Virus record (IMG/VR): IMGVR_UViG_3300012348_000136
Coordinates: 1 to 64,000 of that record
DNA: 64,000 nt
Origin: a virus
Taxonomy: Duplodnaviria; Heunggongvirae; Uroviricota; Caudoviricetes
Reading direction: 5' to 3' (one strand)
This document shows positions 12,775 to 44,401 of this stretch, piece by piece (the first letter of the stretch is position 1; each line of letters starts with the position of its first letter). The translations under genes and the position numbers were made by a program. The notes beneath the pieces were generated by a model. That model was not told where the DNA came from. It saw only the letters and a list, made by a program, of their open reading frames with translations, and did no database searches.

Positions 12775-13725
12775 ATGAATAAACAACGCCTACATCTAAA
12801 TTGGGTCACGTCGACTCATCAAACCTACTTCGTTTCTTTGGACGGAGATTACTGTCCAATTGCGAAAACCGAAAATCTACTTCGTATTCCTTTGAAAGAG
12901 AATACATTCCCAGGCGGAGAAGTTCACCTTCGTCTTGACATCAATGAAGATCAAGTAGCTGACAACGCGCATCTTATTATTGCTGCGCGATACAACACCG
13001 CCGCCGACATCCTTAAGATTGTTCTTGCAGCTGATGCTGCACGCCGTCTTGGATTTTCTAAGACCACGCTTATTCTTCCATACTTCCCCGCGGCGCGTCA
13101 AGATCGTGTCTGTAATGTTGGCGAGCCTCTTACCGTCAAGATCTTTGCTGATATGATTAACGGATGCGGCTTTCATGCGGTTCATATTCTCAGCCCGCAC
13201 AGCGAAGTCACTCCGGCATTGCTGAATAATGTCGTGGTTCATGACGAATGCGGTTTGGTTGAGCGTGCACTGTGTAGGTGGATTACACAAACAAATTTGA
13301 CGACCATCAATATCGTTTGTCCCGATGCTGGCGCAGGCAAGCGTGTTGGTAAGGTTGCATCTTACCTTGCAAAGCGCTTTCCGCAAAACGGTGTCAATCT
13401 TATCCGTTGTGAAAAAGTCCGCGATGTGCGCGACGGCTCGCTTAAGGAGTTCTTTGTCCAAGCCGATGATCTTGGCGGATATCCAACGCTTATCATCGAT
13501 GACATTGTTGCATATGGTGGTACTTTCCTTGGTCTTGCTGACAAGTTGCGTGAACGTAACTGTGGTGAGCTTGGTATCTTCATCTCGCATGCTGACTGTG
13601 AAGAAGGCTTGATGAACCTGCGCCAAAAATTCAATTATGTTGTCACAACTGACTCTAAACGCGATTATGCGGGTTTCGCTTTGGATAATGACAAAACCGT
13701 TGATATCCTACCTTTTAAAATCTAA
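12775..13725 (+). CDS. PRPP-synthetase-family pyrophosphokinase (Prs-like)
   Basis: PRPP-binding loop LIIDDIVAYGGTF; about 316 aa; divergent N-terminus. Confidence 0.6.
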   Translation: MNKQRLHLNWVTSTHQTYFVSLDGDYCPIAKTENLLRIPLKENTFPGGEVHLRLDINEDQVADNAHLIIAARYNTAADILKIVLAADAARRLGFSKTTLILPYFPAARQDRVCNVGEPLTVKIFADMINGCGFHAVHILSPHSEVTPALLNNVVVHDECGLVERALCRWITQTNLTTINIVCPDAGAGKRVGKVASYLAKRFPQNGVNLIRCEKVRDVRDGSLKEFFVQADDLGGYPTLIIDDIVAYGGTFLGLADKLRERNCGELGIFISHADCEEGLMNLRQKFNYVVTTDSKRDYAGFALDNDKTVDILPFKI

Positions 13726-19338: not shown

Positions 19339-19854
19339 ATGAAAACGAACACTACTGTATACACTCCCCCTAGATACTCTAAGAGATACTCTAAGAGAGA
19401 CAGCTCCGCTCCTTCAGTCTTCCTAGCAGGAAGTATTGAAATGGGTAACGCTGAAGATTGGCAAACAAAAGCTATTGATTATTTTAGGCGCGTTATTCCG
19501 ATTGGAAACTCTATCGACTTCTATAATCCTCGGCGTCCTGATTGGGATTCTAGTTGGGTTCAAGATCTAAACAGTCCCAACTTCTATGAGCAGGTATCTT
19601 GGGAACTTGATCATTTGCTTGCAGCTGACTTCATTTATATGTACTTTGATCCATCTACTCAAAGTCCCATTTCTCTCCTTGAGCTTGGCATGTTTGCAAA
19701 TAGCGGCAAGATGGTTGTATGCTGTCCCAATGGATTCTATCGTAAAGGAAACGTCGATATCGTTTGCCAAAAGATGCAGGTACCACTCTTTACTAACTTT
19801 GAGGCAAGCCTAATTGCGCTAAGAAACAGAATTGGAGAATACGCTGAATGGTGA
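19339..19854 (+). CDS. nucleoside 2-deoxyribosyltransferase-family protein
   Basis: VFLAGSIE ... LLELGMFANSGK pattern of the Nuc_deoxyrib_tr fold. Confidence 0.5.
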   Translation: MKTNTTVYTPPRYSKRYSKRDSSAPSVFLAGSIEMGNAEDWQTKAIDYFRRVIPIGNSIDFYNPRRPDWDSSWVQDLNSPNFYEQVSWELDHLLAADFIYMYFDPSTQSPISLLELGMFANSGKMVVCCPNGFYRKGNVDIVCQKMQVPLFTNFEASLIALRNRIGEYAEW

Positions 19855-20369: not shown

Positions 20370-20900
20370 ATGAAAACTCTACAAACACCTGAAGAATATG
20401 GATACGTCCAGCATGGAAACATTGTCCTCTTTCAGAAAGGACCGCTTAGCCAATGGTATGGTGGCTTTAAAGATCAGGATAGTTGTTTCTATGATCAATA
20501 TAGCGGCTATCATTTTAATTGTTGTGAACAATGGATGATGGCTCAAAAGGCGTTTCTTTTTAGTGATTTGGATACAGCCGACCTTATTATTGCAGAGAGA
20601 CATCCAGGAACCCAAAAGGACCTCGGTCGACGTGTTAAGAACTTTGATCCTACGCTTTGGGACGCCGTGAAAGAAGACATCGTGTTTCTTGGAAACTATT
20701 ATAAGTTTACTAAGTGCAATCATTTACGTGACTTTTTGTTTTCGTATGATGTTAATACAATCTTTGCTGAGGCTGCTCCATGGGATCCAATCTGGGGAAT
20801 CGGACTTGGGCCAAATGATCCGGATGCAGCCGATCCTTCAAAGTGGCGTGGTCAAAATCTGCTTGGTAAAGCAATCAGTCGCGTTCGTAAATTACTCTAA
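20370..20900 (+). CDS. NADAR-domain (YbiA-like, DUF1768) protein
   Basis: FYDQYSGYHFNCCEQWMMAQKAFLF ... DPIWGIGLG ... WRGQNLLGKAI match NADAR family motifs. Confidence 0.6.
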   Translation: MKTLQTPEEYGYVQHGNIVLFQKGPLSQWYGGFKDQDSCFYDQYSGYHFNCCEQWMMAQKAFLFSDLDTADLIIAERHPGTQKDLGRRVKNFDPTLWDAVKEDIVFLGNYYKFTKCNHLRDFLFSYDVNTIFAEAAPWDPIWGIGLGPNDPDAADPSKWRGQNLLGKAISRVRKLL

Positions 20901-26307: not shown

Positions 26308-26640
26308 ATGAATATTCCAATCCTCAATCGCCTTCGCGAAATGTTTAAAGCCGAGCGTCCAGAACGCTATGAAAACGATGCACTTGCATCACTTATGTTT
26401 ATCTTCGTTAAAGAAGGAAACGGATATGATGATCAGGACTTAGGCATTGCAGTACATGACATCATTGAAGAATGTCAAACGTACATTTATCGCGATCGTC
26501 CTCTTCAAGTTAACGCTATGATTGAGGCTGAAATAAACGGAGAATATGATGAAGCCGATTACATCGCGAAAAGTATTTACGAACAAGATACAATCGTCAT
26601 GTGCAACCTAGTTAAAATCAGAGAATACATTTACGCATGA
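26308..26640 (+). CDS. hypothetical protein (110 aa)
   Basis: Track ORF. Confidence 0.45.
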   Translation: MNIPILNRLREMFKAERPERYENDALASLMFIFVKEGNGYDDQDLGIAVHDIIEECQTYIYRDRPLQVNAMIEAEINGEYDEADYIAKSIYEQDTIVMCNLVKIREYIYA

Positions 26641-27344
26641 AACAACCAAGAACAGCAGACATACGCGACACACTTGCATCGCTTTATAAGCAAGGGCACT
26701 TCTCAACCGATAAGACTGGTGTAAAAACCGTAGAGATTGTCGGCGCAAGCTTCATTGCCGATGAACCGACAATCTTTGGAGCTCTTAACGATGAATACAT
26801 TGAAAAGGAATTGGATTGGTACTTGTCGCAAAGCTTATATGTCAAAGACATCGGTGATCCTGTTCCGAAGATTTGGACAGCCGTTTCTGACCGTGAAGGT
26901 AAGATCAATTCAAACTATGGCTATCTAATTTTCTCACAGGAGAATGGTCTGCAATTCCAAAATGTTCTAAATGAATTGCTTTCTAACAAAGATTCGCGTC
27001 GGGCCGTAATGATTTACACGCGCCCAAGTATGCATACGGATTACAACTCAAATGGCATGAGTGATTTCATTTGTACCAATGCAGCGCAGTACTTGATCCG
27101 TGATGGCGCATTACATACAGTTGTCCAGATGCGCAGCAATGATGTTGTCTTCGGATATCGCAATGATTATGCTTGGCATCAATATGTAACAAAAGAACTT
27201 CTTAAGCAATACAATGACTGTCTTGCGGATCCAAGTGATGCTGTTGTTCTTGGACAAACGTCGTGGCAAGTGGGTTCTTTACATGTGTATGAAAGACACT
27301 TTAAGATGATTGAGGACTATATAGCTTCACTCTCTGAGCAATAA
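26637..27344 (+). CDS. 42: dCMP hydroxymethylase (thymidylate-synthase family, T4 gp42-like)
   Basis: GASFIADEPTIFGALNDEY, SRRAVMIYTRPS and MSDFICTNAAQYLIRD ... MRSNDVVFGYRNDYAW match ThyA-family motifs and resemble my recollection of T4 gp42. Confidence 0.6.
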   Translation: MKQPRTADIRDTLASLYKQGHFSTDKTGVKTVEIVGASFIADEPTIFGALNDEYIEKELDWYLSQSLYVKDIGDPVPKIWTAVSDREGKINSNYGYLIFSQENGLQFQNVLNELLSNKDSRRAVMIYTRPSMHTDYNSNGMSDFICTNAAQYLIRDGALHTVVQMRSNDVVFGYRNDYAWHQYVTKELLKQYNDCLADPSDAVVLGQTSWQVGSLHVYERHFKMIEDYIASLSEQ

Positions 27345-27348
27345 ATTG

Positions 27349-27377
27349 TTTACAATTTGTGCACGGCCTGATATAAT
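27349..27377 (+). promoter_or_regulatory. sigma70-like promoter
   Basis: TTTACA-N17-TATAAT. Confidence 0.55.
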
Positions 27378-27383
27378 ATCTTT

Positions 27384-27848
27384 ATGATACGGAATGAGAT
27401 TCCTGCGCTACTAGCCAAACCCACTAGGAAATTTCCAGAGCTGGTTGCGCATTTTATCCCTGCACCTGATTACACAAACGAACCAAACAAAATAGACTAT
27501 ACCCGAATGGAAGAAAAAGAAAGCATTAAAATTCTTGACGAATGTAAAGCACTTCAAATCAAGAAGTCAAACGATTACCAAAATCCCCACTCACGTATTC
27601 GTCAAGCAGATTATTATCCTCGCGGCGTTGCTACAATTCTTGACATCATTCAAGCAAAAGTGCTGCGAATGTATTCGGTAATTGAGGCTATGGAAAACGA
27701 TCCAAGCTATGTTCCGAACTTTGAAAGCTTTGAGGATAGCTGTAAAGATCTTATTAACTATGCTTCATTTGCAGCTGCATATTCACGTGGCAAGGTCGAT
27801 GGTCAGTCTCCTTCCAAAGACTTCCTAAATCGCAATGTGAACGCATGA
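27384..27848 (+). CDS. hypothetical protein (154 aa)
   Basis: Track ORF. Could be an NTP-pyrophosphatase-type nucleotide-metabolism protein; I could not assign it. Confidence 0.4.
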   Translation: MIRNEIPALLAKPTRKFPELVAHFIPAPDYTNEPNKIDYTRMEEKESIKILDECKALQIKKSNDYQNPHSRIRQADYYPRGVATILDIIQAKVLRMYSVIEAMENDPSYVPNFESFEDSCKDLINYASFAAAYSRGKVDGQSPSKDFLNRNVNA

Positions 27849-28720
27849 AGAACGTAGTGTTTATCCCGACGTCTAATCTTTACAGAGTGCGTACTCTGAT
27901 AAAGTACTATAACGTCCATAACTTACCAACTGATCAGCGTGTCATTTTCATCGCCGATGATCGTGGCAACATCTCAAAGGAAGAGTATGCTGAGGCTGTA
28001 AATGATTCGAGGTTTGAGTTAATCTATACCTCCGATATGATGGCTGCCGTGAATGACTTGTTTGCGGACTGTCCATATTATGATCCAATCATCAATGACA
28101 TGTATAAAGTGTCAGTGAAAATGCTTGTGTTCATTTATGCAGCTCGTCATATGAGTATCCGCAAGAGCTTGATGCTTGACGACGACATCTTGTTTCTCAA
28201 GCCGCTTGATGAATGGTTTGCGTATGATTATGTTGTCAAAGAGGACGGCTTGTCAACGATGACTACAACATTAGTTAATGGTTTTCAAAGTACATACCCT
28301 CATGTTGATGTTGCGGAATTTAATCAGCCAAAGCATCGTATCAATTCAGGAAGCATTCTTTACACTATGGAAGATAACGACCGTTTGCTTAACGACGTTC
28401 GTGCTTTCTTCTCATCAGACGACATATATCGCATTCTCGTGAATCGTCTAAATAAGACAAGTTCACGTCGAAAAGGTTGGGGTTATGATTGGATGCTTGA
28501 ACAATACTTCTATGGCATCCATATGTATTCCTTAGGCGTAGAGATTCCGCGCTTCCGTTCAGCCGTTAATATTGGTCTTGGATATCCAAAGGAAGATAAA
28601 CCGCTTAAGCCATTTAAGAAAATTCCAAATGTGATTCATTTCCTTCAGATGGAAAAGCAGCGAATGTACGATGCATATCTACCTCTGATTGATGAATACA
28701 TCAGAACCAATAAACTGTAA
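27845..28720 (+). CDS. putative glycosyltransferase
   Basis: DDD motif (LMLDDDILF), possibly a GT-A DxD. Confidence 0.35.
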   Translation: MKNVVFIPTSNLYRVRTLIKYYNVHNLPTDQRVIFIADDRGNISKEEYAEAVNDSRFELIYTSDMMAAVNDLFADCPYYDPIINDMYKVSVKMLVFIYAARHMSIRKSLMLDDDILFLKPLDEWFAYDYVVKEDGLSTMTTTLVNGFQSTYPHVDVAEFNQPKHRINSGSILYTMEDNDRLLNDVRAFFSSDDIYRILVNRLNKTSSRRKGWGYDWMLEQYFYGIHMYSLGVEIPRFRSAVNIGLGYPKEDKPLKPFKKIPNVIHFLQMEKQRMYDAYLPLIDEYIRTNKL

Positions 28721-28721
28721 C

Positions 28722-29771
28722 ATGGCACAACATATCACAACACTTGTCGTTGACTATGACGACACAATAGCAATTACTTTTAATCGTGATTGGCAGAATG
28801 CTAAACCAAATCAGCCGCTGATTAATAAACTAAATCAGCTGTATGATCAAGGATGGACCATTCACATTGTAACTGCACGCGGTCAGCTTTCATGTGATGG
28901 TGACTATCAAAAAGCAGATGATAAGTATCGTAAGCAAATTGAAAAGTGGTTGAGCGATCATAATGTAAAGTATCATACGCTAAGTTTCCAAAAGAAGCTG
29001 GCAGCATATTACATTGATGATAAAGGAATAACTCCTGAGCAGTTTGTTGAAAAATTTGATCGGGTTGATCTACAAAACGGTTGGTCAGGTGCTTCAGTTT
29101 ATTATGATGCAGTTACTGATTGCGTTTATAAGACCGCGTCAAACGGTCATGAAGCAATTCAGTGGTATGAGCATGCAACCGCATTAGGTTACAATACACC
29201 ACATGTCCACAACATCATCGGCAACACTATTCGTATGAGTAGGCTGCCTGCTTACACTGGAAGTGTATGTGATGCGGTTGATAGTATCATATCATTCGGC
29301 AAACATCCAGCATTGCGCGGAAATAAAGACGCTCTTGCATATGTTGAACGCTGTACCGCGCGCGTAAAGAACATGTTGCCAACCGATACTTTAAAAAGTA
29401 TTGTTAACTTTCTACAGGTTGCAATGCAGTCTACACCATTCACATTTGGGCACGGTGATTGTTCATCGTTGAACATTATGGGAGCTGCGGCTGACTCATG
29501 TGTTCCTGCATTCATTGATCCAATCAACGATTCTACATTGTATAGCAGCTATGTCATTGACCTTGGAAAATATTATGCAAGCATTGACATCTTTAAACAA
29601 GAACCATCTATTAAAGACGAAATCCTTAATGCTGTAGATAGCGTAAGTAGCTGGACAATCAAAGCGCATGCACTTGGACATCTTTGCCGTTGCTTGCCAT
29701 ATGCACCCACTGAGGCAGACAAACTGCATATAACTACTCTTATCGAAAAACAAACATATGCTCTTAGATAA
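28722..29771 (+). CDS. bifunctional HAD-like phosphatase / APH-type sugar kinase candidate
   Basis: N-terminus VVDYDDTIA (HAD motif I) and IVTAR. C-terminal HGDCSSLNI (HGDxxxxN kinase motif) and FIDPIND. Confidence 0.45.
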   Translation: MAQHITTLVVDYDDTIAITFNRDWQNAKPNQPLINKLNQLYDQGWTIHIVTARGQLSCDGDYQKADDKYRKQIEKWLSDHNVKYHTLSFQKKLAAYYIDDKGITPEQFVEKFDRVDLQNGWSGASVYYDAVTDCVYKTASNGHEAIQWYEHATALGYNTPHVHNIIGNTIRMSRLPAYTGSVCDAVDSIISFGKHPALRGNKDALAYVERCTARVKNMLPTDTLKSIVNFLQVAMQSTPFTFGHGDCSSLNIMGAAADSCVPAFIDPINDSTLYSSYVIDLGKYYASIDIFKQEPSIKDEILNAVDSVSSWTIKAHALGHLCRCLPYAPTEADKLHITTLIEKQTYALR

Positions 29772-30207
29772 AAAAGAACTAGCCGCTAGACTTGGAAAAG
29801 ATATCAACGACGTAAAGATTGGTCTTACCGCGTCCACATTTGACTTGTTTCATGCAGGCCATAATGTAATGCTGATGGAAGCAAAACAACTTTGTGACTA
29901 TCTCATTGTTGGCTTGCTGGTAGACCCAACAAAAGATCGCCCAGACACAAAGAACAAGCCAGTCCAAAGTGTGTTTGAGCGTTACATCCAAATTTCAAGC
30001 TGCAAGTACATTGATGAAATCATTCCGTTTGAAACCGAAAACGATTTGGTCGATATGATCCTAACTATCAATCCTGACATTCGTATTGTTGGGGAAGAAT
30101 ACAAAGGTACTGACCATACTGGAGTTGGTCTTTGCCCAATTCATTATAATAAGCGTCGCCACTCGTTCTCTACAAGTGAGCTACGCACACGAATTCAAAA
30201 TCAATAA
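29758..30207 (+). CDS. cytidylyltransferase-like nucleotidyltransferase (TagD/HldE-adenylyltransferase type)
   Basis: TASTFDLFHAGH HxGH nucleotidyltransferase motif; 149 aa. Confidence 0.55.
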   Translation: MLLDKKELAARLGKDINDVKIGLTASTFDLFHAGHNVMLMEAKQLCDYLIVGLLVDPTKDRPDTKNKPVQSVFERYIQISSCKYIDEIIPFETENDLVDMILTINPDIRIVGEEYKGTDHTGVGLCPIHYNKRRHSFSTSELRTRIQNQ

Positions 30208-30215
30208 TTACATAT

Positions 30216-31238
30216 ATGAAAATACTGATCACCGGCGGTGCCGGATTTGTTGGAACTAATCTAATTCCTTGTTTACTAAATGATGGTCATGATGTTTATG
30301 TCTTTGATAACCTTGCACAAGGAAGCCTAATTCCTGAGGTTCACAATCGTGTTCACGTGTGCATTGGTGATATTACAAATCGTGAACACATCTTTTCGTA
30401 TGTTGAAAATGTAAAGCCTGATATCACGTTTCACTTTGCAGGACTGGTTAGCATTTATGATTGTCATAAAGATTCAGCATCAGCGTGTTTGAATAACATC
30501 AATGGCTCACTCAATGTATTTGATGCATTGCTAGCACATGGTTGTCCGCGTGTTATCTTTTCTGAAACAAGCGCGGTTTATGAGAATTGTGCGTTGCCTC
30601 CAAATGGTTACAATGAATCTCAAAGCGATCCTACTACTTTCTATTCTACATCTAAGGCATGTGTTGCATTGATTGCTGAAAGCTATGCACGTACTAAAGG
30701 ATTGCGATACACTGCGCTTCGTTACTTTAATGTCGCTGGTCCTATTCAAGACTATCGTCGAACAGTACCTCCACTCTTCGCTGGATTTGCAATTCGTATG
30801 ATGGCTGGTAATAATCCAATCATCTTTGGTAACGGTGAACGTCGTCGTGACTTCATTCATGTGGATGACATCAATGATTTCCACATCCTTGCAATGAACA
30901 ATGATGAGACCATCGGTGAGACATACAACCTCGGCCGCGGCGAAAGTTATAGCTTGTATGAAATTGGTGATATTGTCGCAGATGTTTTGCGTAAGCGCGG
31001 ATATCAAAATATTCCCGAAAAGATTACTTATACAATGATGCCTGAAATCAATGGTGAAGCATTTGATATTTACGCAGATGTTCGCAAAGCAAATACATTA
31101 GGGTGGTCTGCATCACGTAGCATTGAAGAAGCGCTAAATGATACCATTGTGTATCTTGAACGTGAAATTGAAAATGGCGCAATTAAGCCAGATACATACA
31201 TGAGCAATATTAATACTGACAGCGTTAAGATTGGATAA
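30216..31238 (+). CDS. NAD-dependent sugar epimerase/dehydratase (extended SDR)
   Basis: ILITGGAGFVGTNL Rossmann motif and YSTSK catalytic YxxxK. Confidence 0.7.
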   Translation: MKILITGGAGFVGTNLIPCLLNDGHDVYVFDNLAQGSLIPEVHNRVHVCIGDITNREHIFSYVENVKPDITFHFAGLVSIYDCHKDSASACLNNINGSLNVFDALLAHGCPRVIFSETSAVYENCALPPNGYNESQSDPTTFYSTSKACVALIAESYARTKGLRYTALRYFNVAGPIQDYRRTVPPLFAGFAIRMMAGNNPIIFGNGERRRDFIHVDDINDFHILAMNNDETIGETYNLGRGESYSLYEIGDIVADVLRKRGYQNIPEKITYTMMPEINGEAFDIYADVRKANTLGWSASRSIEEALNDTIVYLEREIENGAIKPDTYMSNINTDSVKIG

Positions 31239-32514
31239 CATGAACATCTTTGTAGGAAAATTAGGAAAAAGTATTCTCTTCAAGCGATCGTCTTGGGGAC
31301 CAATTGGTGGTGATAATGAAGCTCCGCTATATTATGAAAATCTATTTCATCGCAATCCTGACATTCAATTTTACTTGTTAGGTTGCAGCGACTATGATCG
31401 TCTAGCACCTGAAGAACGTGATCGTATTAATAAGAACGGTAACGTCCATAATATCTGGGGTGATGATTGGAAGAACTTCAAAAAGACATATAGCGGACCA
31501 AAGGTTAGCTGCCGTATTGATTACATGGATCAATGGGCTGCAAAGGCTAAAGAGTCTGGTTTGAACATGGATGTTGGAATCCTTTTTGCAGGACCAAACG
31601 CAACATGTAATATGCCATTTCGTGTGACGAAAATGAAGGATCCAACTGTAATAGCTAAGCCTATTGATATGTTGGCTCTTTATGCTGGTCCGTTGGTTTC
31701 TTACCTAAACACTTACCGTGTTCCATATACATTGATCGTAAATGACCCTCGGTTCTTTCCATTTATGTCAAAGGATTTGCTACACGCGCCATCGAGTGTA
31801 TTGTCGCAATACAATGAGACAATTACTTTCAAGCACCGAAAGACATACACTGATAACACCGTCATTCAGTTTCCACTTGAAGCAAGGTATGCATCGTCTG
31901 AAACAATTTATTTGATTAACGATAAGAGTAAAGAAACTGAATCGAAACCATGCTCGCTTGAGTCATTCTTCGGTGAAGATACGCCAGTTGAAGAAACGGG
32001 TGTGGTAGAGCGCGACATTAAGTTCCTAGTTGTTCTTAATGAAGGTCGCCCTTCGCGCTATGGTCTTCTTAAAGAAAATATTTTAGATCATATTGATGAT
32101 GTTAGTGTTTATGGTCAATGGGATCCTGAAACTATTGGAGATGATCCTCGCTTTAAAGGTAGCGTATCTTATGATGAACTGCAAAAGATGCTTCCTCGTA
32201 TCAAGTATTCATATTGCATTCCAATTAAGCCAGGCTGGGTGACAATGAAGTTTTGGGAACTGTTAAATCATGGAGTTATTCCATTCTTGCATCCAACATA
32301 TGACAGTCAAAATAATCTAAATGCTCCAGAGTTTCTGAGAGTTAAAGATAGTAAAGATTTAGCAGCTAAGATAAATTTCTTAGAGAATAATCCTGAAGAA
32401 TATACGCTATTCTTAAATAGGCTAAAAGCAATGATTAAGCCAGAGCATCGCGATGGGTCGCTATTAAATAACATCGTAATGAATGAAATCACAAAGATAA
32501 CAAATAATGACTAA
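31231..32514 (+). CDS. DNA beta-glucosyltransferase homologue (T4 beta-gt-like)
   Basis: Blocks resembling my recollection of T4 beta-gt: WVTMKFWELL vs ITLRVWETM, a RPSRYG block and a C-terminal EFLRVKDSKDLAAKINFL block. Confidence 0.5.
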   Translation: MDNMNIFVGKLGKSILFKRSSWGPIGGDNEAPLYYENLFHRNPDIQFYLLGCSDYDRLAPEERDRINKNGNVHNIWGDDWKNFKKTYSGPKVSCRIDYMDQWAAKAKESGLNMDVGILFAGPNATCNMPFRVTKMKDPTVIAKPIDMLALYAGPLVSYLNTYRVPYTLIVNDPRFFPFMSKDLLHAPSSVLSQYNETITFKHRKTYTDNTVIQFPLEARYASSETIYLINDKSKETESKPCSLESFFGEDTPVEETGVVERDIKFLVVLNEGRPSRYGLLKENILDHIDDVSVYGQWDPETIGDDPRFKGSVSYDELQKMLPRIKYSYCIPIKPGWVTMKFWELLNHGVIPFLHPTYDSQNNLNAPEFLRVKDSKDLAAKINFLENNPEEYTLFLNRLKAMIKPEHRDGSLLNNIVMNEITKITNND

Positions 32515-33781
32515 TAAGAAATATACATACGCAGCAATTGTACCTCTAATTGGGGGTGAAGTATTGGGTACAACCGAAGCTCTAAATGGGCAGCTACCCG
32601 AATATGTACTATCATATACTCCATTCAAGAATAATGATGAGCATTACATCAATTACATCCGTACTCAAAAAGGATGGTCTGGTGATTATGTTTTCTTAGA
32701 TGAAAACACTGATTATGTAGCGCCGCATGTAGACGTTGTTCTTACAACATGTCCATGCGCAGGACTATCAAGCTTTAGTACAACAAGTAATGAAAATAGT
32801 GCAACCAATGATTGGATGTATCGCACTGCAGAATATGTACTTGGCACAATTAAGCCAACTGTTTTCTGGGGAGAAAATGCTCCACGATTGTATGGTAACA
32901 GCGGTAAGAAAGTAGCAGACCGTCTGCATGAAATTGGTAAGGCGCTTGGATACAGCCTGAATCTTTACTATACCGAAAGCCGTCTGCATGGATTGTCACA
33001 AAAGAGACCGCGCACATTCTACTTCTTCACGAAGAGTGAATCCGCTCCTATCTTTTCGTGGCATAATAAAGAGCCTGAGTCAGTTGAAGACGTTCTTAAA
33101 ATGGCAAAGCGTCCAGATGACCCGATGAATATTCTTACCAATGAAGAATGCCCAACCGCTAATGCATGGGTTGCATACAACATGGCAATGACGGAGTCAA
33201 AGACAATCGGTCAATTGGCTACACACTTTGACAAGACAACTAACATGATTGTTAACACTGACGGCGGTTATGGTAAGAATCTTCTTGAGGTTGCGGATTG
33301 GATGGACGCTAATGGCCATAGTCATGTAGCAAAGCGCGCACGCGCAATGCAAGCAAAACTCGATGATGGTAAAGGCTACTGGGCGCACGGCGTCACTCTT
33401 CCAAAAGGTCAACTTATTCCTGCTTTCATCGGTGCACTTCCGTACTGTATGATTAACCCATTCACCGAAAAGTACATTACTATTCGTGATGGTCTTCGTC
33501 TAATGAAGATGCCTGAAGACTTTAATCTTGTGGGTGATAAACCACTCGCCAAGCTTAATCACGTTTGCCAAAACGTTCCAGTTACGACTGCACGTGACAT
33601 GATGCTTAATGTTATTGAGTATCTTGAAGGCAAAACGCAATATGGAGACTGCTCATATATCAAGCAAAGTAATAAGAATAAGAATATTGTTCGTGTTACG
33701 CTTGATGAAACGTACGCAGCAAATACTGCGGACCTTGATGAGTTTTTCCATTTACATAAACACAAAACTAATATACAATAA
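32507..33781 (+). CDS. C5-cytosine methyltransferase-fold protein
   Basis: Ordered motifs: I PLIGGEVLG, IV TCPCAGLSSFS, VI GENAPRL, VIII SQKRPRTFYFF, X-like CQNVPV. Confidence 0.5.
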   Translation: MTNKKYTYAAIVPLIGGEVLGTTEALNGQLPEYVLSYTPFKNNDEHYINYIRTQKGWSGDYVFLDENTDYVAPHVDVVLTTCPCAGLSSFSTTSNENSATNDWMYRTAEYVLGTIKPTVFWGENAPRLYGNSGKKVADRLHEIGKALGYSLNLYYTESRLHGLSQKRPRTFYFFTKSESAPIFSWHNKEPESVEDVLKMAKRPDDPMNILTNEECPTANAWVAYNMAMTESKTIGQLATHFDKTTNMIVNTDGGYGKNLLEVADWMDANGHSHVAKRARAMQAKLDDGKGYWAHGVTLPKGQLIPAFIGALPYCMINPFTEKYITIRDGLRLMKMPEDFNLVGDKPLAKLNHVCQNVPVTTARDMMLNVIEYLEGKTQYGDCSYIKQSNKNKNIVRVTLDETYAANTADLDEFFHLHKHKTNIQ

Positions 33782-33797
33782 ACATAATACAAATACT

Positions 33798-34880
33798 ATG
33801 TCATCCGTACTCGATAAACTAAAAAAGAATTGCCGAATTAAAGAAGCAGATGTCCTTTCAGAATCGGACTTCTATTCGGAAAAGGATATTACTCCTACAC
33901 CAGTGCCAATGATTAATGTTGCTCTTAGCGGCAGCATTGATGGTGGTCTTACTAGCGGACTTACTGTTCTTGCAGGTCCGTCCAAGCACTTCAAGACTAG
34001 CTTTGCGCTTCTTATGGCTGCAAGCTATCTGAAAAAGCATAAGGATGCAGTTCTTATGTTTTATGATTCCGAATTCGGATCGCCACAGCAATACTTTGAA
34101 AGCTTTGGCATTGATACATCGCGCGTTCTACATGTTCCTATTAAGAACATTGAAGAACTAAAGTTTGACTTGGTCAATCAGCTTGATCAAATTGAACGTA
34201 AGGATAAGGTTGTAATTGTTATCGACTCGGTTGGTAACCTTGCAAGTAAGAAGGAACTTGAAGATGCTCTGAACGAAAAGAGCGTCGCTGACATGACGCG
34301 CGCAAAGGCGCTAAAAGGTCTGTTCCGTATGGTTACTCCATATCTTACAATGAAGAACATTCCGCTTATTGCAATTAACCACACCTATCAGGAAATTGGA
34401 TTGTTCCCGAAGGCGATTGTTAGCGGCGGCACCGGCATTACTTACAGTGCCGACAACATCTGGATTCTTGGTCGTCAGCAAGATAAAGATGGTACTGAAA
34501 TTCAGGGATATCACTTCATCATTAACGTCGAGAAGTCTCGCTTCGTTAAGGAAAAGTCGAAGATCCCGATCAGCGTAAGTTGGGAAGGCGGTATTCAGAA
34601 GTGGTCTGGATTGCTTGATGTTGCTATTGACGGTGGATATGTTATCAAACCAAAGAATGGTTGGTACATGGCAGTGAACAAGGCAACTGGAGAACCGCTT
34701 ACGCAAAACTTGCGAGCTGCGCAGACTATGACGTCTGACTTCTGGGAGAAGGTGTTTAATAACACTAACTTTGCCAAATACATTAAAGACAAGTATACAA
34801 TTGGTCTGCGTGACATGATCACTGAGACTGCTTCTAAAGACTTGTCTGATGATGAAATCCTTGAGCAGTACGAAGAGTAA
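33798..34880 (+). CDS. uvsX: UvsX RecA-like recombinase
   Basis: Extensive similarity to my recollection of T4 UvsX (MINVALSG ... LAGPSKHFKTSFAL ... LFYDSEFG ... DSVGNLASKKELEDALNEK ... DMTRAKALKGLFR ... NHTY). Confidence 0.8.
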   Translation: MSSVLDKLKKNCRIKEADVLSESDFYSEKDITPTPVPMINVALSGSIDGGLTSGLTVLAGPSKHFKTSFALLMAASYLKKHKDAVLMFYDSEFGSPQQYFESFGIDTSRVLHVPIKNIEELKFDLVNQLDQIERKDKVVIVIDSVGNLASKKELEDALNEKSVADMTRAKALKGLFRMVTPYLTMKNIPLIAINHTYQEIGLFPKAIVSGGTGITYSADNIWILGRQQDKDGTEIQGYHFIINVEKSRFVKEKSKIPISVSWEGGIQKWSGLLDVAIDGGYVIKPKNGWYMAVNKATGEPLTQNLRAAQTMTSDFWEKVFNNTNFAKYIKDKYTIGLRDMITETASKDLSDDEILEQYEE

Positions 34881-35179
34881 TGATTGAAGGAAAAGACTAC
34901 TTGTTGGTCGAAGATGATTTACATCCAGACCAATTCCTGATACAATTAACAAGTAGCGGATATGCTGGTGTAATTTACCGTTATGGTAAAGTCAGTATAG
35001 TTGAGGAAAAGAATCAGGCACGCTTGAAGTTTATCTACAAGATTGAGAGCGTGCCTGATTTTCTCACACACCGCCGCGACAAATTGCAAGAAGATCCTGA
35101 GTTCAATAATCTGCTCGGTGAAATTCTCGCTGACATTCTCTCAAATAACGACTGTAAAATAGGAAGACCACATGATTGA
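34880..35179 (+). CDS. small protein in the position of T4 gene 40
   Basis: Lies between the uvsX and gp41 homologues as gene 40 does in T4; no motif support. Confidence 0.35.
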   Translation: MIEGKDYLLVEDDLHPDQFLIQLTSSGYAGVIYRYGKVSIVEEKNQARLKFIYKIESVPDFLTHRRDKLQEDPEFNNLLGEILADILSNNDCKIGRPHD

Positions 35180-36581
35180 TATTTCTCTTGAATCCCTTAT
35201 CTTAAACAACCTTGTCAACAATGAAGCATACACACGCAAAGCTATGCCTCATATTAAGCCTGAATACTTTACAGGCTCTCAGCGTGTAATCTATGAGCTG
35301 ATTCTTGACTTCATCAGCAAGTATAATAAGCTTCCAAACGCTAGTGTACTTGACATTGAATTTCAAAAAAGTAATGCAGCGGTGCGTCCAGACCGTCACG
35401 ATATTCTAAAAGAGATACGTGAATTTAGTACGCCACAACCAGCTGAACATGAATGGCTTGTAGACAGCACTGAAAAGTGGTGTAAGGATCGCGCTGTTCA
35501 TTTGGCTGTTATGGAAGCCATCTCAATCATCGATGGCAAAAATAAAGATAAGGCCGAAGGAGCAATTCCTGAGATTCTTAACAAAGCTTTAAGCGTAACA
35601 TTTGATACAAACGTAGGTCACGACTATCTTGAGAATGCTGATCGTCGATTTGATTTCTATCATCGTGTTGAAGATAAGATTGAGTTTGATCTTGATATGC
35701 TTAATCAAATTACCAATGGCGGTGTTCCTCGTAAGACACTAAATATCATCCTTGCAGGTACAGGTGTTGGTAAGAGTTTGGGTATGTGTCACCTTGCCGC
35801 AGCTGACCTTTCTATGGGTCGCAACGTTCTTTACATTACGATGGAAATGGCAGAAGAACGTATTGCTGAACGTATTGATGCTAACCTGCTTGATGTTCGT
35901 ATTGATGAGCTAAAGAACTTGTCACAAACTGCTTTCTCATCGAAGATTAAGAACCTATCAGAACGCACAAAAGGTAAGATTGTTATTAAGGAATATCCAA
36001 CAGCTAGTGCACATGCTGGACACTTCCGCGCATTGCTACATGAGCTGAAACTGAAAAAGAAGTTTACGCCTGATGTCATTTACATTGACTATCTTAACAT
36101 TTGCGCTAGCAGCCGTATTAAAGGATTAAGCGGTAGTGTTAATACTTACAGCTTAATCAAGGCTATTGCTGAAGAACTACGTGGTCTTGCGGTTGAATTT
36201 AATGTTCCGATTTGGAGTGCAACACAGGTTACACGTGGCGGCTATAACAGTTCCGATGTTGAACTAACTGACACATCCGAAAGTTTCGGTTTGCCTGCAA
36301 CCGCTGACTTGATGATTGCGTTTATCAGCACTGAGCAACTTGAAAAGATGAATCAGCTTATGGTTAAACAGCTCAAGAATCGTTATAATGATGCAAATAC
36401 AAATAAGCGATTCACTGTTGGTATTGATCGCTCAAAGATGCGACTGTATGATGTTGCTGATCCAACCGCAAATATTATGAGTGAGGAATCTTCATCAGCT
36501 GCGCCAGTTGCAAATACACCATTTAGTCGAGGCGGTAATAATGCACAAAGAGGAAAATCCTTTAGCGACTTCAAAGTATGA
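35172..36581 (+). CDS. 41: gp41-like replicative DNA helicase (DnaB family)
   Basis: ILAGTGVGKSLGMCHLAA ... NVLYITMEMAEE ... IDANLLDV ... GLPATADLMIA match my recollection of T4 gp41. Confidence 0.8.
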   Translation: MIDISLESLILNNLVNNEAYTRKAMPHIKPEYFTGSQRVIYELILDFISKYNKLPNASVLDIEFQKSNAAVRPDRHDILKEIREFSTPQPAEHEWLVDSTEKWCKDRAVHLAVMEAISIIDGKNKDKAEGAIPEILNKALSVTFDTNVGHDYLENADRRFDFYHRVEDKIEFDLDMLNQITNGGVPRKTLNIILAGTGVGKSLGMCHLAAADLSMGRNVLYITMEMAEERIAERIDANLLDVRIDELKNLSQTAFSSKIKNLSERTKGKIVIKEYPTASAHAGHFRALLHELKLKKKFTPDVIYIDYLNICASSRIKGLSGSVNTYSLIKAIAEELRGLAVEFNVPIWSATQVTRGGYNSSDVELTDTSESFGLPATADLMIAFISTEQLEKMNQLMVKQLKNRYNDANTNKRFTVGIDRSKMRLYDVADPTANIMSEESSSAAPVANTPFSRGGNNAQRGKSFSDFKV

Positions 36582-40927: not shown

Positions 40928-42166
40928 ATGAAATCATTTAAAGACTACATCGCTGAGGCTTCGGCTGAAGGCAAAAATTTACACATGACTCATATCGAGG
41001 ATGCTGTTATTTACGGCGGCATTAAAGGAGCACGTGATGCAATTCTTGCGTTGCGAAGCTTACGCGATATGCTCGCGGGTAATGCTAAATCAGCCACAGA
41101 CGTTACAGTAAAATGGGATGGTGCACCGGCAGTATTTGCTGGTATTGATCCATCGGACGGACAGTTCTTTGTTGCTAAGAAAGGTATCTTCAACAAGAAT
41201 CCAAAGATCTATAAGAGCGTGTCAGACGTTCGTGCTGATACGTCTGGAGACCTTGCTGATAAACTGTCCATTGCTTTTAATGAATTACAAAAGCTTGGAA
41301 TTAAAGGAGTGCTACAAGGTGACATTATGTTCACCCAAAAGGATCTTAGTGTTGAAGACTATGATGGAGAAAAGTACATCACGTTTCAGCCCAACACAAT
41401 TGTTTATGCAGTTCAAGCTAATAGCGAAATTGCAAAGACTATCAAGAAAGCTAAAATTGGCGTAGTATTCCATACACGATACACCGGAGCTACTCTTGAA
41501 AGTATGAAAGCTTCTTATGACTTTGATCAAAGCGAACTTAAAAAGACTTCGTCAGTTTGGTTCCAAGACGCAAAAGTTCATGACCTTTCAGGTAAGGCTA
41601 CCTTTACAGCTGAAGAGACCGCTGAGCTAACCGCAAGACTGTCAGTTGCAGGTAAGATATTTCAAAAGATCAACGGTTCTACACTCAAGGAAATTGAAGA
41701 CAATCCTGACTTTGCACAAAGCCTTGAAACATTCAATAACACATATGTACGTCGCGGTGAAACCGTAAAGGATACAAAAGCACATGTTGATAACTTAATC
41801 AAATGGGCAACAGATCGCTTCAATAAAGACATCGAGTCTAAGAAGTCAGCAAAAGGTAAGGAAGCTGCATCGGCAAAACGCGACGACTATATGAAGTTCT
41901 TTTCGGATGAAAACAAAAAGAACCTCAACTTGGTTTATCAGCTACAAAATGCAATTATTGATGCAAAGATGTTAATTATAAATAAACTCGATACTCTTAA
42001 AAAGTTAAGTACTTTTATTAGAACTAAGAACGGATTTAGAGTTACAAGTCAAGAAGGTTTTGTTGCAATTGATCATTTATCAGGTGGCGCAGTAAAATTG
42101 GTTGACCGCATGAATTTCTCTTATTCAAATTTTAGTCCTGACGTAATTAAAGGATGGGATCGCTAA
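40928..42166 (+). CDS. putative internal head protein (capsid-targeting-sequence-like N-terminus)
   Basis: N-terminus MKSFKDYIAEA; also carries a KWDG motif reminiscent of nucleotidyltransferase motif I. Confidence 0.45.
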   Translation: MKSFKDYIAEASAEGKNLHMTHIEDAVIYGGIKGARDAILALRSLRDMLAGNAKSATDVTVKWDGAPAVFAGIDPSDGQFFVAKKGIFNKNPKIYKSVSDVRADTSGDLADKLSIAFNELQKLGIKGVLQGDIMFTQKDLSVEDYDGEKYITFQPNTIVYAVQANSEIAKTIKKAKIGVVFHTRYTGATLESMKASYDFDQSELKKTSSVWFQDAKVHDLSGKATFTAEETAELTARLSVAGKIFQKINGSTLKEIEDNPDFAQSLETFNNTYVRRGETVKDTKAHVDNLIKWATDRFNKDIESKKSAKGKEAASAKRDDYMKFFSDENKKNLNLVYQLQNAIIDAKMLIINKLDTLKKLSTFIRTKNGFRVTSQEGFVAIDHLSGGAVKLVDRMNFSYSNFSPDVIKGWDR

Positions 42167-42167
42167 T

Positions 42168-43166
42168 ATGAAACAATCAGATACACCTGCAAGTAAAGAA
42201 CCTAAGAAGATTCGATTAAAGGATCTTATCGCTGTTGACTACACTGACGACTCATGGCCTGAGGACGAAGAAGGACAGTTAGCATACGATTATTGGAAGC
42301 GCGCGTCTGGAGTTCTTGATGAGGAAGAAATTGAAGAAGGCATTGATTGGTTTAAGCTTGTCTATGGTGACAGCAAATTAGCTATTGCTAAGAAGATTAA
42401 AGCTACCCCATCTAAGACTTTAGAAACTCTAGCTAAATCAAATCCAAATGCAGCTGGTGCTCAAAAATTTCAGCATGAGTTTGCCGTAAAAGAACTTGAA
42501 TATCGCAAGAAGATTAATGATCATTCTGACGGTAACCCAAAATATAAGAAAGAATATGGGAATGGATATAGTCATTTAGAAGATTCACTCGAAGAATCTC
42601 ACGATTCTCAAATCTCTAAGTATGAACTAAATGGCGAGCTTAAGCGTGTAAATGATCGTATTAAGTTCCTACGTGCGGCTCATCATGGTTCCTCTTTACC
42701 TAAGGACGTTTCATCTGAGCTAAAGCGACTTGAAGATCAACGTGATAGTATTCTTTCAATGCTTAAGGAAGAAGATATCCTTGAAGATGTTGACTCTGAG
42801 ACTATCACAGAGGCACTTAATATGTTGCAGCGCATGAAGCGCCGCGCGATTATGCGTAGAAACAAATCAAAGATTCTTGCAGGCCGTCGTCGCGCGCAAC
42901 GCCGCCGCGCATCCACCTCAGTTCTTCAGCAACGTGCAGTGCGCGCGGCTCGTGCTGCTCTTGCTCGCCGCTTGTTACATAAAAATAAAGGTGAAGCTAG
43001 CTATGGTGAAAAGGTTCGAGTTGAAAGAATGCTTGCTGCTCGCCAAGGGGCAATTAAGAACATTGCTCGCCGTCTTCTTTCAAAGGTTCGTCAAAAGGAA
43101 CGTATGCGTTTCCAAAAGCATGCTACCCCTCCAAAGCCAATCCAATCCATTAAGCCAAATAAGTAA
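42168..43166 (+). CDS. hypothetical protein with a strongly basic C-terminus
   Basis: Arg-rich tail RRRAQRRRAST... Confidence 0.45.
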   Translation: MKQSDTPASKEPKKIRLKDLIAVDYTDDSWPEDEEGQLAYDYWKRASGVLDEEEIEEGIDWFKLVYGDSKLAIAKKIKATPSKTLETLAKSNPNAAGAQKFQHEFAVKELEYRKKINDHSDGNPKYKKEYGNGYSHLEDSLEESHDSQISKYELNGELKRVNDRIKFLRAAHHGSSLPKDVSSELKRLEDQRDSILSMLKEEDILEDVDSETITEALNMLQRMKRRAIMRRNKSKILAGRRRAQRRRASTSVLQQRAVRAARAALARRLLHKNKGEASYGEKVRVERMLAARQGAIKNIARRLLSKVRQKERMRFQKHATPPKPIQSIKPNK

Positions 43167-44401
43167 TGGGACTCAAATCATTCCGTACCTACACCGAAGA
43201 ATCAACTAAGGAATTAGTTGCGACATTCGGCCGCTTTAATCCGCCGACAATTGGTCATGAAAAATTGATTAATGCGGTTGCAAAAGAAGGCAAAGGTAAA
43301 ACATATCGCATTTACGCATCGCAAAGCGAGGATTCAAAAAAGAACCCGCTATCTTACGATGATAAGATTAAATTTATGCGTAAGATGTTTCCACAGTATG
43401 GTCGCAATATCATACTGGATCGCGCAATCAAAAATGTGTTTAACGTAGCGTCAGCTGCACATGACGATGGCTACACAAAATTCACGTTGGTTGTAGGGAG
43501 CGATCGTGTTCCAGAATTTAAGTCTTTGCTTGCAAAGTATGATGGTGTTAAAGGTACACATGGGTACTATAAATTCCGTGATGGTATTCAAGTTGTATCT
43601 GCGGGCGAACGCGATCCTGATGCAGACGATGTAAGTGGTATGAGTGCATCAAAGATGCGTGCTGCGGCGGCTGATAACGATCTTGATACTTTTGCAAAAG
43701 GACTGCCTAAAACATTTGGTGAAGTCAAGGAGTTGTTTAATGCTGTGCGAAAAGGAATGGGTCTAAAAGAAAGCCATAACTTCCGTAAGCATGTTCAGTT
43801 TGAGCCACTAAGCAATATTCGTGAACGCTATATTGCTGGAGAAATTTTCAATGTTGGCGATGAAGTTTATGCTGAATCTGAGAGTGACATGATCCTTACT
43901 GTTGAATCACGCGGACCAAACCATGTCACGTGTAAACTACCAAATGGAGAAACCAAACGCTTCTTTATAACCGATCTGCATATAGTTGAAGGCTCTTCAT
44001 ACTATACGGGCCTGTCAAAATCAACCGCTGATAAACGCGAAAAGCATTTTGACAAGAACGCTAAGAAGGATGACGATGATGACAGTGCATACGCGCCTGC
44101 ACCAGGCGATAAGACCGCTGTCACTAAACCTTCAAAATACACAAAAGAATATCAAAGGAGATTTGATGAAGGCGCTAGCCCAGTGTCTAAAGCACTGCGT
44201 AAAAAGTCAGAAGATTCTGGTATTGACTATGGTATACTTAAAGACGTATATGACCGTGGACATGCTGCATGGAGAACTGGCCATCGTCCTGGAACAACGC
44301 CTGAGCAGTGGGGATTGGCTAGAGTAAACAGTTTTATAGTTGGAGGAACAACCCGCAAGACCACAGACTCCGACTTATGGAAAAAGCATAAAGGTAAATA
44401 A
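43166..44401 (+). CDS. cytidylyltransferase-like nucleotidyltransferase, NMNAT candidate, with capsid-targeting-like N-terminus
   Basis: N-terminus MGLKSFRTYTEES, then GRFNPPTIGHEKL (HxGH motif) and SGMSASKMR (ISSTxxR-like); unknown C-terminal half. Confidence 0.5.
   Translation: MGLKSFRTYTEESTKELVATFGRFNPPTIGHEKLINAVAKEGKGKTYRIYASQSEDSKKNPLSYDDKIKFMRKMFPQYGRNIILDRAIKNVFNVASAAHDDGYTKFTLVVGSDRVPEFKSLLAKYDGVKGTHGYYKFRDGIQVVSAGERDPDADDVSGMSASKMRAAAADNDLDTFAKGLPKTFGEVKELFNAVRKGMGLKESHNFRKHVQFEPLSNIRERYIAGEIFNVGDEVYAESESDMILTVESRGPNHVTCKLPNGETKRFFITDLHIVEGSSYYTGLSKSTADKREKHFDKNAKKDDDDDSAYAPAPGDKTAVTKPSKYTKEYQRRFDEGASPVSKALRKKSEDSGIDYGILKDVYDRGHAAWRTGHRPGTTPEQWGLARVNSFIVGGTTRKTTDSDLWKKHKGK

Follow-up and report, generated by a model that had tools for sequence, protein, structure and literature searches.

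In phages of the T4 type, 5-hydroxymethylcytosine (hmC) is made before replication, and its presence is thought to be fully explained by a hydroxymethylase acting at the nucleotide level together with a dCTPase, a kinase and DNA glycosyltransferases (GTs). T4 has no cytosine C5-methyltransferase (C5-MTase) at its hmC module, and its sole DNA methyltransferase (MTase) is the adenine methylase Dam. Yet a conserved gene of the C5-MTase family accompanies the hmC machinery in marine T4-like phages, in a Pseudoalteromonas phage, in a metagenomic lineage and in phage G. Here we analyze this gene in a 64,000-nucleotide stretch of Caudoviricetes DNA (positions 1 to 64,000 of the IMG/VR record IMGVR_UViG_3300012348_000136, hereafter the window), where it forms an open reading frame (ORF) next to genes predicted to make and glycosylate hmC. 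Its product is referred to as the window MTase.

CmoX of Synechococcus phage S-B43 (PDB 8yf3) is a phage DNA cytosine C5-carboxymethyltransferase; its Arg350, at the position of N304 in M.HhaI, binds the carboxylate of carboxy-S-adenosylmethionine (carboxy-SAM), and the protein has an SPPC motif and a neighboring gene for the carboxy-SAM synthase CmoA (PMC12783734). In phage MT/TET/GT clusters, 5-methylcytosine (5mC) made by an MTase is oxidized by TET to hmC after replication (PMC8256090; bioRxiv 10.1101/2023.12.21.572611). Experiments with the cluster of “contig 53” have demonstrated that it adds one or two heptoses to 5hmC (Pyle et al., bioRxiv 10.1101/2023.12.21.572611), and the same work lists methyltransferases, without analysis, among genes neighboring GTs, including those on ThyS-associated contigs. 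The literature that we searched, which included work on S-TIM5, phage G, dehydroxymethylation and the pairing of hmC with C5-MTases in phages, yielded no study of a C5-MTase within an hmC cluster of the thymidylate-synthase type. The superfamily is known; the clade, its atypical motif set and its partnership with thymidylate-synthase-type clusters for hmC or glycosyl-hmC are not described in the papers searched.

Results

The window MTase has a C5-MTase fold

The initial annotation had placed a C5-MTase-fold enzyme at exactly 32507–33781 on the plus strand. The ORF is found there, and its translation contains all of the motifs quoted, in canonical order: PLIGGEVLG (motif I, residues 13–21), TCPCAGLSSFS (motif IV, 81–91), ENA (motif VI, 123–125), QKRPR (motif VIII, 165–169) and QNVPV (355–359). 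Motif VI had been read as ENA(V); the ENA part holds, and the residue that follows is Pro (ENAP), not Val. The protein matched Pfam PF00145 (DNA_methylase) with E = 3.4e-14 and 53.5 bits (cut-off, 22) over profile positions 49–319 only, and the late start of this match at position 49 indicates that motif I is divergent. PHROG 116 (“DNA methyltransferase”) was matched at 2e-10. When a profile of 80 homologs was compared with the PDB, M.HaeIII, CmoX, DNMT1, M.HhaI and M.MpeI were recovered at E = 6e-9 to 1e-4.

Motifs I–III remained unaligned in the PDB searches with the single sequence or the family profile, and were aligned by global hhalign using a profile of 208 family sequences. This alignment matched the family to M.HhaI with a probability of 98.9% (E = 1.8e-16), and every motif fell on its HhaI counterpart. 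V12-P13-L14-I15-G16-G17 of the window MTase corresponds to F18-A19-G20-L21-G22-G23 of M.HhaI, F40 to W41, D60 to D60, P83-C84-A85 to P80-C81-Q82, E123-N124-A125 to E119-N120-V121, Q165/R167/R169 to Q161/R163/R165, and N356 to N304. Statements made below on the pocket for S-adenosylmethionine (AdoMet) come from the alignments combined with DSSP.

An AlphaFold2 model built from the homolog alignment had a predicted local distance difference test score (pLDDT) of 90.2 and a predicted template modeling score of 0.86. Confidence was low only in the C-terminal tail and in the catalytic loop at residues 89–94, as expected for a loop that should be mobile. Among predicted viral structures, the top match was gp301 of Bacillus phage G (template modeling score, 0.71). 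A large insertion between motifs VIII and IX (residues about 180–320) is conserved and resembles a DNA target-recognition domain. The initial annotation had allowed that profile and structural matches to C5-MTases might be lacking, or that the order of the motifs might be coincidental. Both kinds of match are clear, and the window MTase has the C5-MTase fold with its ordered motifs, far beyond what chance would give.

Base-activating residues are conserved across the family

Residue conservation was counted in the 208 family sequences, which cover roughly 20–100% identity. Cys84 is kept in 207 of them, Glu123, Arg167 and Arg169 are each present in all 208, and Gln165 is kept in 204. That the residues activating the base are essentially invariant strongly supports a covalent mechanism acting on a flipped base of the cytosine type. 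Asn356 is retained in 201 sequences. The positions of HhaI Gln82 and Val121 are occupied by Ala in 182 and 202 sequences, respectively. From these patterns we infer that the window MTase is a catalytically competent member of the DNA C5-MTase family, belonging to a phage-specific clade.

A large protein collection contained 1405 homologs at E<1e-5, nearly all of them metagenomic and many on contigs of 50–180 kb, and PF00145 was present in all 120 homologs among the matches listed. In a library of representatives at 50% identity, 634 clusters were matched at E≤1e-3 and 214 at E≤1e-30, mostly over their full length. Members of the clade itself share 40–88% identity, and the active site is intact throughout.

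Some distant relatives differ in domain composition. P0332, a protein of 598 amino acids (aa), carries, as a fusion, a zinc finger of the CXXC type, which is known to recognize CpG DNA that is unmethylated. Besides this one fusion, Pfam gave no second domain in the distant relatives, and the long relatives P0303 (768 aa) and P0340 (1462 aa) have large extensions without a Pfam match.

The gene flanks an exchangeable glycosylation cassette

Upstream of the MTase gene, the window encodes a homolog of T4 gp42, with 57% identity to the product of T4 gene 42 and 60% to a “dCMP hydroxymethylase” of an Aeromonas phage. In the numbering of E. coli ThyA, this thymidylate synthase (TS) homolog carries D143, C146, R166, D169 and D177. 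The type that synthesizes 5-hydroxymethyl-dCMP (hm-dCMP) is recognized by N177D and by L143D or L143E in ThyA, with D169 retained, whereas D169N marks the 5-hydroxy-dCMP type (Lee et al. 2026, PMC13326640). By these criteria, D143, D177 and the retained D169 identify the protein as a dCMP hydroxymethylase, and not as a thymidylate synthase or a 5-hydroxy-dCMP synthase. A 5-hydroxycytosine pathway of the RB69 type was ruled out, since Asp169 is retained.

We surveyed by tblastn 80 IMG/VR loci with MTase homologs of 40–88% identity (loci are designated by L-numbers). The four contigs that were inspected gene by gene had the order TS homolog, variable cassette, MTase, UvsX, helicase. A gp42 homolog lies 2–8 kb upstream of the MTase gene in 29 of the 30 loci with at least 8 kb of upstream DNA, and the D143/C146/R166/D169/D177 signature is present in every TS ORF recovered from the related loci (48/48). 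On the downstream side, 70 loci extend far enough to be scored, and in 68 of them uvsX is found within 3.5 kb of the MTase start, mostly directly after the MTase gene. Between the hydroxymethylase and the MTase, a DNA GT is encoded in every relative whose ORFs in this interval were scanned, and the family of this GT varies. It belongs to the T4 alpha-gt family (PF11440, AGT) in L066, L025, L049 and L088, to the TET-associated GT family (PF20691, TAGT) in L043, L051 and L048, and to the beta-gt-like GT-B type in the window, L010 and L030. The GT is accompanied in the relatives by epimerases, an aminotransferase, NeuB with a CMP-sugar synthetase, or fusions of an NTP-transferase and a kinase. 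L010, whose MTase is 88% identical to the window MTase, nevertheless has a different cassette. The MTase gene is the constant flank of a hypervariable glycosylation cassette.

The interval between the gp42 homolog and the MTase is also a hot spot of whole-cassette exchange (L004, L005, L010, L025, L043, L048 and L066). Parts exchanged include GTs of the T4 alpha-gt and TET-associated families, NeuB with a CMP-sugar synthetase, a class-V aminotransferase and an FkbM-type methyltransferase, and the exchange is seen even among phages whose flanking genes are 85–97% identical.

Linkage to hmC genes recurs in distant lineages

In Pseudoalteromonas phage vB_Psh_XG4 (XG4; 32% identity in the MTase), the locus contains, in this order, a TS homolog, a HAD protein, an NTP-transferase/kinase, two GTs, the MTase and a MazG-like gene. 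L090/L091 (30%) encode a TS homolog, a dCMP deaminase, an NTP-transferase, two unknown proteins and the MTase, followed by SprT, an RNA ligase and a polynucleotide kinase (PNK). The hm-dCMP signature (D143, D169, D177) is also present in the TS homologs of XG4 and L090/L091. In L089 (34%), an epimerase and a UDP-glucose dehydrogenase follow the MTase. In the Bacillus jumbo phage G, gp301 (22%) lies at most about 15 kb from two annotated alpha-glucosyltransferases (gp306 and gp313). Within the same distance are genes for a dCMP deaminase, a glucose-1-phosphate thymidylyltransferase and a HAD hydrolase. The nearby gp319 (L093, 5069–6115), annotated as “thymidylate synthase”, carries D143, D169 and D177. 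This gene content suggests that the DNA of phage G contains glucosyl-hmC.

Cyanophage S-TIM5 encodes an MTase homolog, gp080, 2.4 kb from a ThyA homolog, gp076 (L008, 5772–6608, minus strand). The latter has Cys at position 143 and Asp at the N177 position of ThyA; since Asp at position 177 points to dCMP specificity, gp076 may be a deoxycytidylate-modifying enzyme and not a dTMP synthase. No GT was seen near the S-TIM5 homolog, which is paired with the dCMP-type ThyA homolog only and lies on the strand opposite to its neighbors.

In XG4, L090/L091 and phage G, the linkage of the MTase to hmC genes is kept despite loss of the uvsX neighborhood. The family is thus recurrently paired with genes predicted to modify cytosine before replication, in at least five unrelated phage groups. 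It had been argued from the window that a canonical 5mC MTase would lack a substrate on its own genome. That logic stands, and the locus survey and the distant lineages make it a general puzzle and not the quirk of one genome.

Organization of the hmC module in the window

The genes of the module (Table 1) are all on the plus strand, in the order gp42 homolog, p154, 291-aa ORF, HAD/APH protein, cytidylyltransferase, epimerase, GT-B, MTase, UvsX, a 99-aa ORF and the gp41-type helicase. The GT stop codon and the MTase ATG overlap by 8 nucleotides (nt). The gp42-type signature, the beta-gt-like GT and a sugar cassette resembling that for heptosyl-hmC support, by prediction, the initial claim that hmC is made and glycosylated, and the label “hmC glycosylation locus” for the surroundings of the MTase is justified. 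Replacement of C by hmC may be complete, and the hmC may be decorated with heptose.

Table 1. Predicted genes of the hmC module in the window
Feature	Coordinates	Strand	Basis or remark
dCMP hydroxymethylase (T4 gp42 homolog), predicted 5-hydroxymethyl-dCMP source	26637..27344	+	PF00303 E=1.3e-15
Conserved 154-aa protein p154, candidate nucleotide pyrophosphohydrolase (possible dCTPase)	27384..27848	+	Adjoins gp42 homolog
291-aa protein, DxD-like motif LMLDDDILF, possible GT-A glycosyltransferase	27845..28720	+	Read from sequence
Bifunctional HAD-phosphatase/APH-like sugar kinase	28689..29771	+	N-terminus PHROG “phosphoheptose isomerase”/PNK-phosphatase; C-terminus kinase motif HGDCSSLN
Cytidylyltransferase-like sugar-1-phosphate nucleotidyltransferase	29758..30207	+	PF01467 E=3.8e-14; PHROG 7878 “heptose 1-phosphate adenyltransferase” 1.5e-29
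NAD-dependent nucleotide-sugar epimerase/dehydratase	30216..31238	+	PF01370 E=6.6e-51; PHROG 540 “nucleotide-sugar epimerase” 5e-61
GT-B DNA glycosyltransferase, structural homolog of T4 beta-glucosyltransferase	31231..32514	+	
C5-cytosine methyltransferase-family enzyme (window MTase)	32507..33781	+	ATG start, 424 aa; PF00145, PHROG, PDB/fold matches, M.HhaI alignment
UvsX recombinase (T4 uvsX homolog), downstream module flank	33798..34880	+	PF00154 + PF21134 on identical gene in L001
DnaB-type replicative helicase (T4 gp41 homolog)	35172..36581	+	PF03796 DnaB_C on identical gene in L001; phage matches annotated DNA primase/helicase

The small protein p154 matched a PHROG family named “hydrolase” at 3e-9, had no Pfam match, and showed 58% identity to hypothetical proteins from T4-like phages of Serratia (PS2, Muldoon) and Cronobacter. 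It is weakly similar (E about 1e-4) to “nucleotide pyrophosphohydrolase” genes of the 5mC phage Xp12 and its relatives. Homologs with 45–90% identity stand beside the gp42 homolog in nearly all related loci (L002–L088), and p154 is a weak candidate for the missing dCTPase. The 64-kb window, which is part of the genome, gave no clear dCTPase, dCMP deaminase or ThyX; nor does the window have a homolog of the MazG/PRA-PH-type genes of the relatives. The 291-aa protein had no Pfam or PHROG match. It also occurs in L010, the relative with 88% identity, and in a few others at 29%; from its DxD-like motif it could, tentatively, be a second transferase of the GT-A type.

Among the Pfam matches of the window ORFs at 23.7–51 kb and of the relatives L002, L004, L005 and L090, no 2-oxoglutarate-dependent dioxygenase and no TET family was found, although ORFs without a Pfam match could hide a divergent one. 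Pfam scans of the MTase neighbors gave no CmoA-like gene. Since the hmC of this phage is predicted to arise before replication through a gp42-type enzyme, and no TET was found among the scanned neighbors, the MTase is left without an obvious place in the pathway.

A sigma-70-like site near the consensus (TTTACA, a 17-nt spacer and TG-TATAAT) is present at 27349–27377, within the 39 nt that separate the hydroxymethylase gene from the cassette; overall, the scan for promoters and terminators gave no enrichment over shuffled sequences. Up to the end of the MTase gene, no intergenic gap gave a terminator-like site, the few weak plus-strand matches being inside ORFs, and a single transcription unit through the MTase would fit this pattern.

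No near-identical phage was found in GenBank, with only helicase matches of about 80 bp, and the 12.5-kb Logan contig of the window added nothing new. Elsewhere in the window, a set of NAD-salvage and nucleotide genes occupies 12775–13725, 16872–18458, 19339–19854 and 20370–20900; its members are a ribose-phosphate pyrophosphokinase-like protein, a nicotinamide phosphoribosyltransferase, a nucleoside 2-deoxyribosyltransferase-like protein and a NADAR domain protein. Such sets are linked to KVP40-like relatives of T4. Downstream of the helicase, at 40928–42166 and 43166–44401, lie genes for a DUF6267 protein (E = 5e-101) and a fusion of a cytidylyltransferase-like domain with DUF5824. Both recur in L002 and L005, and the DUF6267 gene is also found in XG4.

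Discussion

A proposed active C5-MTase in an hmC module

We favor, with moderate confidence, the view that the window MTase is an active DNA C5-MTase, kept as a conserved accessory of the hmC module, that acts on cytosines other than hmC, either residual C in phage DNA or C in host or foreign DNA. The enzyme would flip a cytosine out of duplex DNA, Cys84 would attack C6, Glu123 and Arg167/Arg169 would hold N3/N4 and O2, and a one-carbon group would be transferred to C5, most likely the methyl group of AdoMet held near Asn356. A methyl cofactor is supported by Asn, instead of the Arg of CmoX, at the carboxy-SAM-selecting position, and by the lack of SPPC. The CXXC fusion of P0332 also speaks for this view. 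The cytosines of the phage itself would be made as hm-dCMP before replication and then glycosylated, leaving C5 blocked, and with the phage's own cytosines blocked in this way the substrates must be cytosines that are not hmC. In one version, residual unmodified C in new phage DNA would be methylated, as a post-replicative second layer that leaves no bare C. In another version, host or foreign DNA would be methylated, which the phage could do freely because its own genome would be immune. Membership of the family, the fold, the conserved catalytic residues, the place in the operon and the recurrent co-location with hm-dCMP synthase and DNA GTs are shown by the analysis; the use of AdoMet, DNA as the substrate, the choice of target DNA and the biological role we infer from sequence. 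Because the pairing recurs in at least five unrelated phage groups, the enzyme probably has an unrecognized job in cytosine modification.

Several observations weigh against this view. Motif I reads V-P-L-I-G-G; no more than a few of the 208 sequences keep the Phe and the initial Gly of F-x-G-x-G-G. T38-P39 of the window MTase stand at the ribose-binding Glu40 of M.HhaI, and of the 208 sequences 101 carry an acid at the E40 equivalent, 54 carry one at the D60 equivalent and 75 lack both, in a loop whose alignment is uncertain. Acids that bind adenosine so poorly conserved would be odd for an obligate AdoMet enzyme. In the pocket flanking C5 and the transferred group, PCQ has become PCA and ENV has become ENA, and the pocket is non-canonical because these side chains are smaller. 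If a dCTPase removes dCTP as in T4, almost no bare C should be left to “polish”, and we know of no demonstrated benefit of methylating host DNA. An enzyme whose substrate is hmC itself would be equally compatible with a conserved target-recognition domain and with close linkage to the hmC cluster in many lineages, and no characterized member of the clade was found in the literature searched. The atypical features of motifs I, II and III and of PCA and ENA, which depend on loop alignments, are hints of an unusual pocket and no proof against the use of AdoMet. That about half of the family still has the motif II acid points to an origin among enzymes that bind AdoMet.

Alternative functions

The alternative that fares best, although we consider it unlikely, is a repurposed enzyme of the MTase fold that works on a modified base or installs a non-methyl group on DNA, and that would constitute a real step of hypermodification. 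Cys84 could attack C6 of hmC or of bare C, with the one-carbon unit at C5 being exchanged, removed or added: leftover C might be hydroxymethylated with a formaldehyde or folate donor, or hmC converted to another 5-(X-methyl)cytosine. Alternatively, an AdoMet analogue might serve as the donor. Such a role would account for the tight and repeated linkage to clusters for hm-dCMP synthase and GTs, seen in several unrelated lineages in which the surrounding sugar genes change, and for base-activating residues that are invariant next to an atypical motif I and poorly kept acids for the adenosine of AdoMet. It would also fit A85 and A125 in place of Q82 and V121 of M.HhaI. Lukinavicius and co-workers reportedly described, in 2012, Q82A among the substitutions that enlarge the M.HhaI pocket for bulkier groups. 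Liutkeviciute and co-workers are likewise said to have found, in 2009 and 2011, that C5-MTases, in vitro and with no AdoMet present, add or remove formaldehyde at C5 and derivatize hmC. In nature, CmoX sets a precedent for a C5-MTase homolog that transfers something other than methyl (PMC12783734). Against repurposing, Asn356 is kept as in true methyltransferases, the motif II acid persists in about half of the family, and the Pfam and PHROG scans of the neighbors gave no partner enzyme for an alternative cofactor, CmoA included. The PCA and ENA motifs are common to the whole family, including S-TIM5, and are not tied to one cluster type. A hydroxymethylase acting on DNA would be largely redundant with the gp42 homolog, and such chemistry is not known in nature.

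In a more specific and still more doubtful form, the clade would be a dedicated and hitherto unrecognized component of pre-replicative cytosine hypermodification that adds, exchanges or edits the one-carbon substituent at C5 and does not make 5mC. It could, for example, hydroxymethylate escaped cytosines so that the GT coating is complete, or convert a subset of hmC to another 5-substituted cytosine. If true, this would be a natural, DNA-level counterpart of the “atypical” C5-MTase reactions known in vitro, and the second case after CmoX of the fold being diverted from methylation.

We think it less probable again that the gene encodes an ordinary orphan phage C5-MTase, linked to the hmC genes by the synteny of a “DNA modification island” and guarding against certain restriction enzymes of the host when, or if, the DNA contains C. 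Orphan MTases are common in phages, the position next to uvsX in 68 of the 70 marine T4-like loci makes part of the linkage plain synteny, and the S-TIM5 copy has the opposite orientation to its neighbors. However, the linkage to the hm-dCMP synthase and GT cluster persists without uvsX synteny in XG4, L090/L091 and phage G, and its persistence in unrelated gene orders weakens plain hitch-hiking. Moreover, the clade retains the gene, its active site intact, over a range of 40–88% identity, the end of the GT gene and the start of the MTase gene overlap, and an MTase for restriction evasion would be pointless on a genome already substituted at C5. Very improbable, finally, are an RNA-directed enzyme (a tRNA 5mC methyltransferase like Dnmt2), with which the self-genome paradox would vanish but which is at odds with DNA MTases outscoring Dnmt2 and with the insertion resembling a DNA target-recognition domain, and a catalytically silent protein binding DNA or hmC, which is at odds with the invariant catalytic residues.

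Should the phage combine pre- and post-replicative modification of cytosine, this may bear on how completely its DNA is shielded against restriction, CRISPR and DNA-glycosylase defenses. Instead, the phage may use its own immunity to C5-methylation to attack or mark host DNA, or the fold may have gained a new chemistry of use for DNA labeling and sequencing tools. The question is directly testable, since three carriers (XG4, phage G and S-TIM5) have been cultured.

Comparison with known systems

With the DNA C5-MTases of PF00145 (M.HhaI, M.HaeIII, M.MpeI and the prophage enzyme 3g7u), the window MTase shares the order of the motifs, the Pro-Cys, the Glu of motif VI, the Q-x-R-x-R of motif VIII and the Asn of motif X, as well as a large variable region between motifs VIII and IX at the position of the target-recognition domain. 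Its identity to the solved C5-MTases is only 13–17%. It differs from the PF00145 enzymes in V-P-L-I-G-G, in PCA and ENA, and in the absence of the motif II acid, which is half-conserved in the clade, and its gene resides in a genome whose cytosines are predicted to be already blocked at C5. CmoX is similar in being a phage C5-MTase homolog that serves hypermodification and not plain methylation. In contrast to the Arg350, SPPC and CmoA of that system, the window MTase carries Asn356 and CPC, and the scans of its neighbors revealed no CmoA; a carboxymethyltransferase of the CmoX type was ruled out on these three points.

As in the phage clusters with a C5-MTase, a TET enzyme (5mYOX) and GTs (PMC8256090; bioRxiv 10.1101/2023.12.21.572611), a C5-MTase here stands beside DNA GTs and sugar-nucleotide genes, and the TET-associated GT family of those clusters is also found in the relatives L043, L051 and L048. 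The difference is that hmC in the window phage is predicted to be pre-replicative, arising from the gp42-type dCMP hydroxymethylase. A post-replicative MT/TET/GT pathway was ruled out as the local logic, with a gp42-type synthase present and no TET-like gene found among the scanned neighbors. The heptosyl-hmC cluster of “contig 53” is matched by the window cassette (27384–32514) in its HAD/APH, cytidylyltransferase and GT-B parts, and in the epimerase too, and the HAD/APH enzymes of both have the same architecture. With the hmC module of T4 (42, beta-gt, uvsX, 40, 41), the window shares gene order and homologous proteins. Compared with T4, the lineage of the window has two insertions between gene 42 and uvsX, namely a sugar cassette that can be swapped and a C5-MTase-family gene that stays constant.

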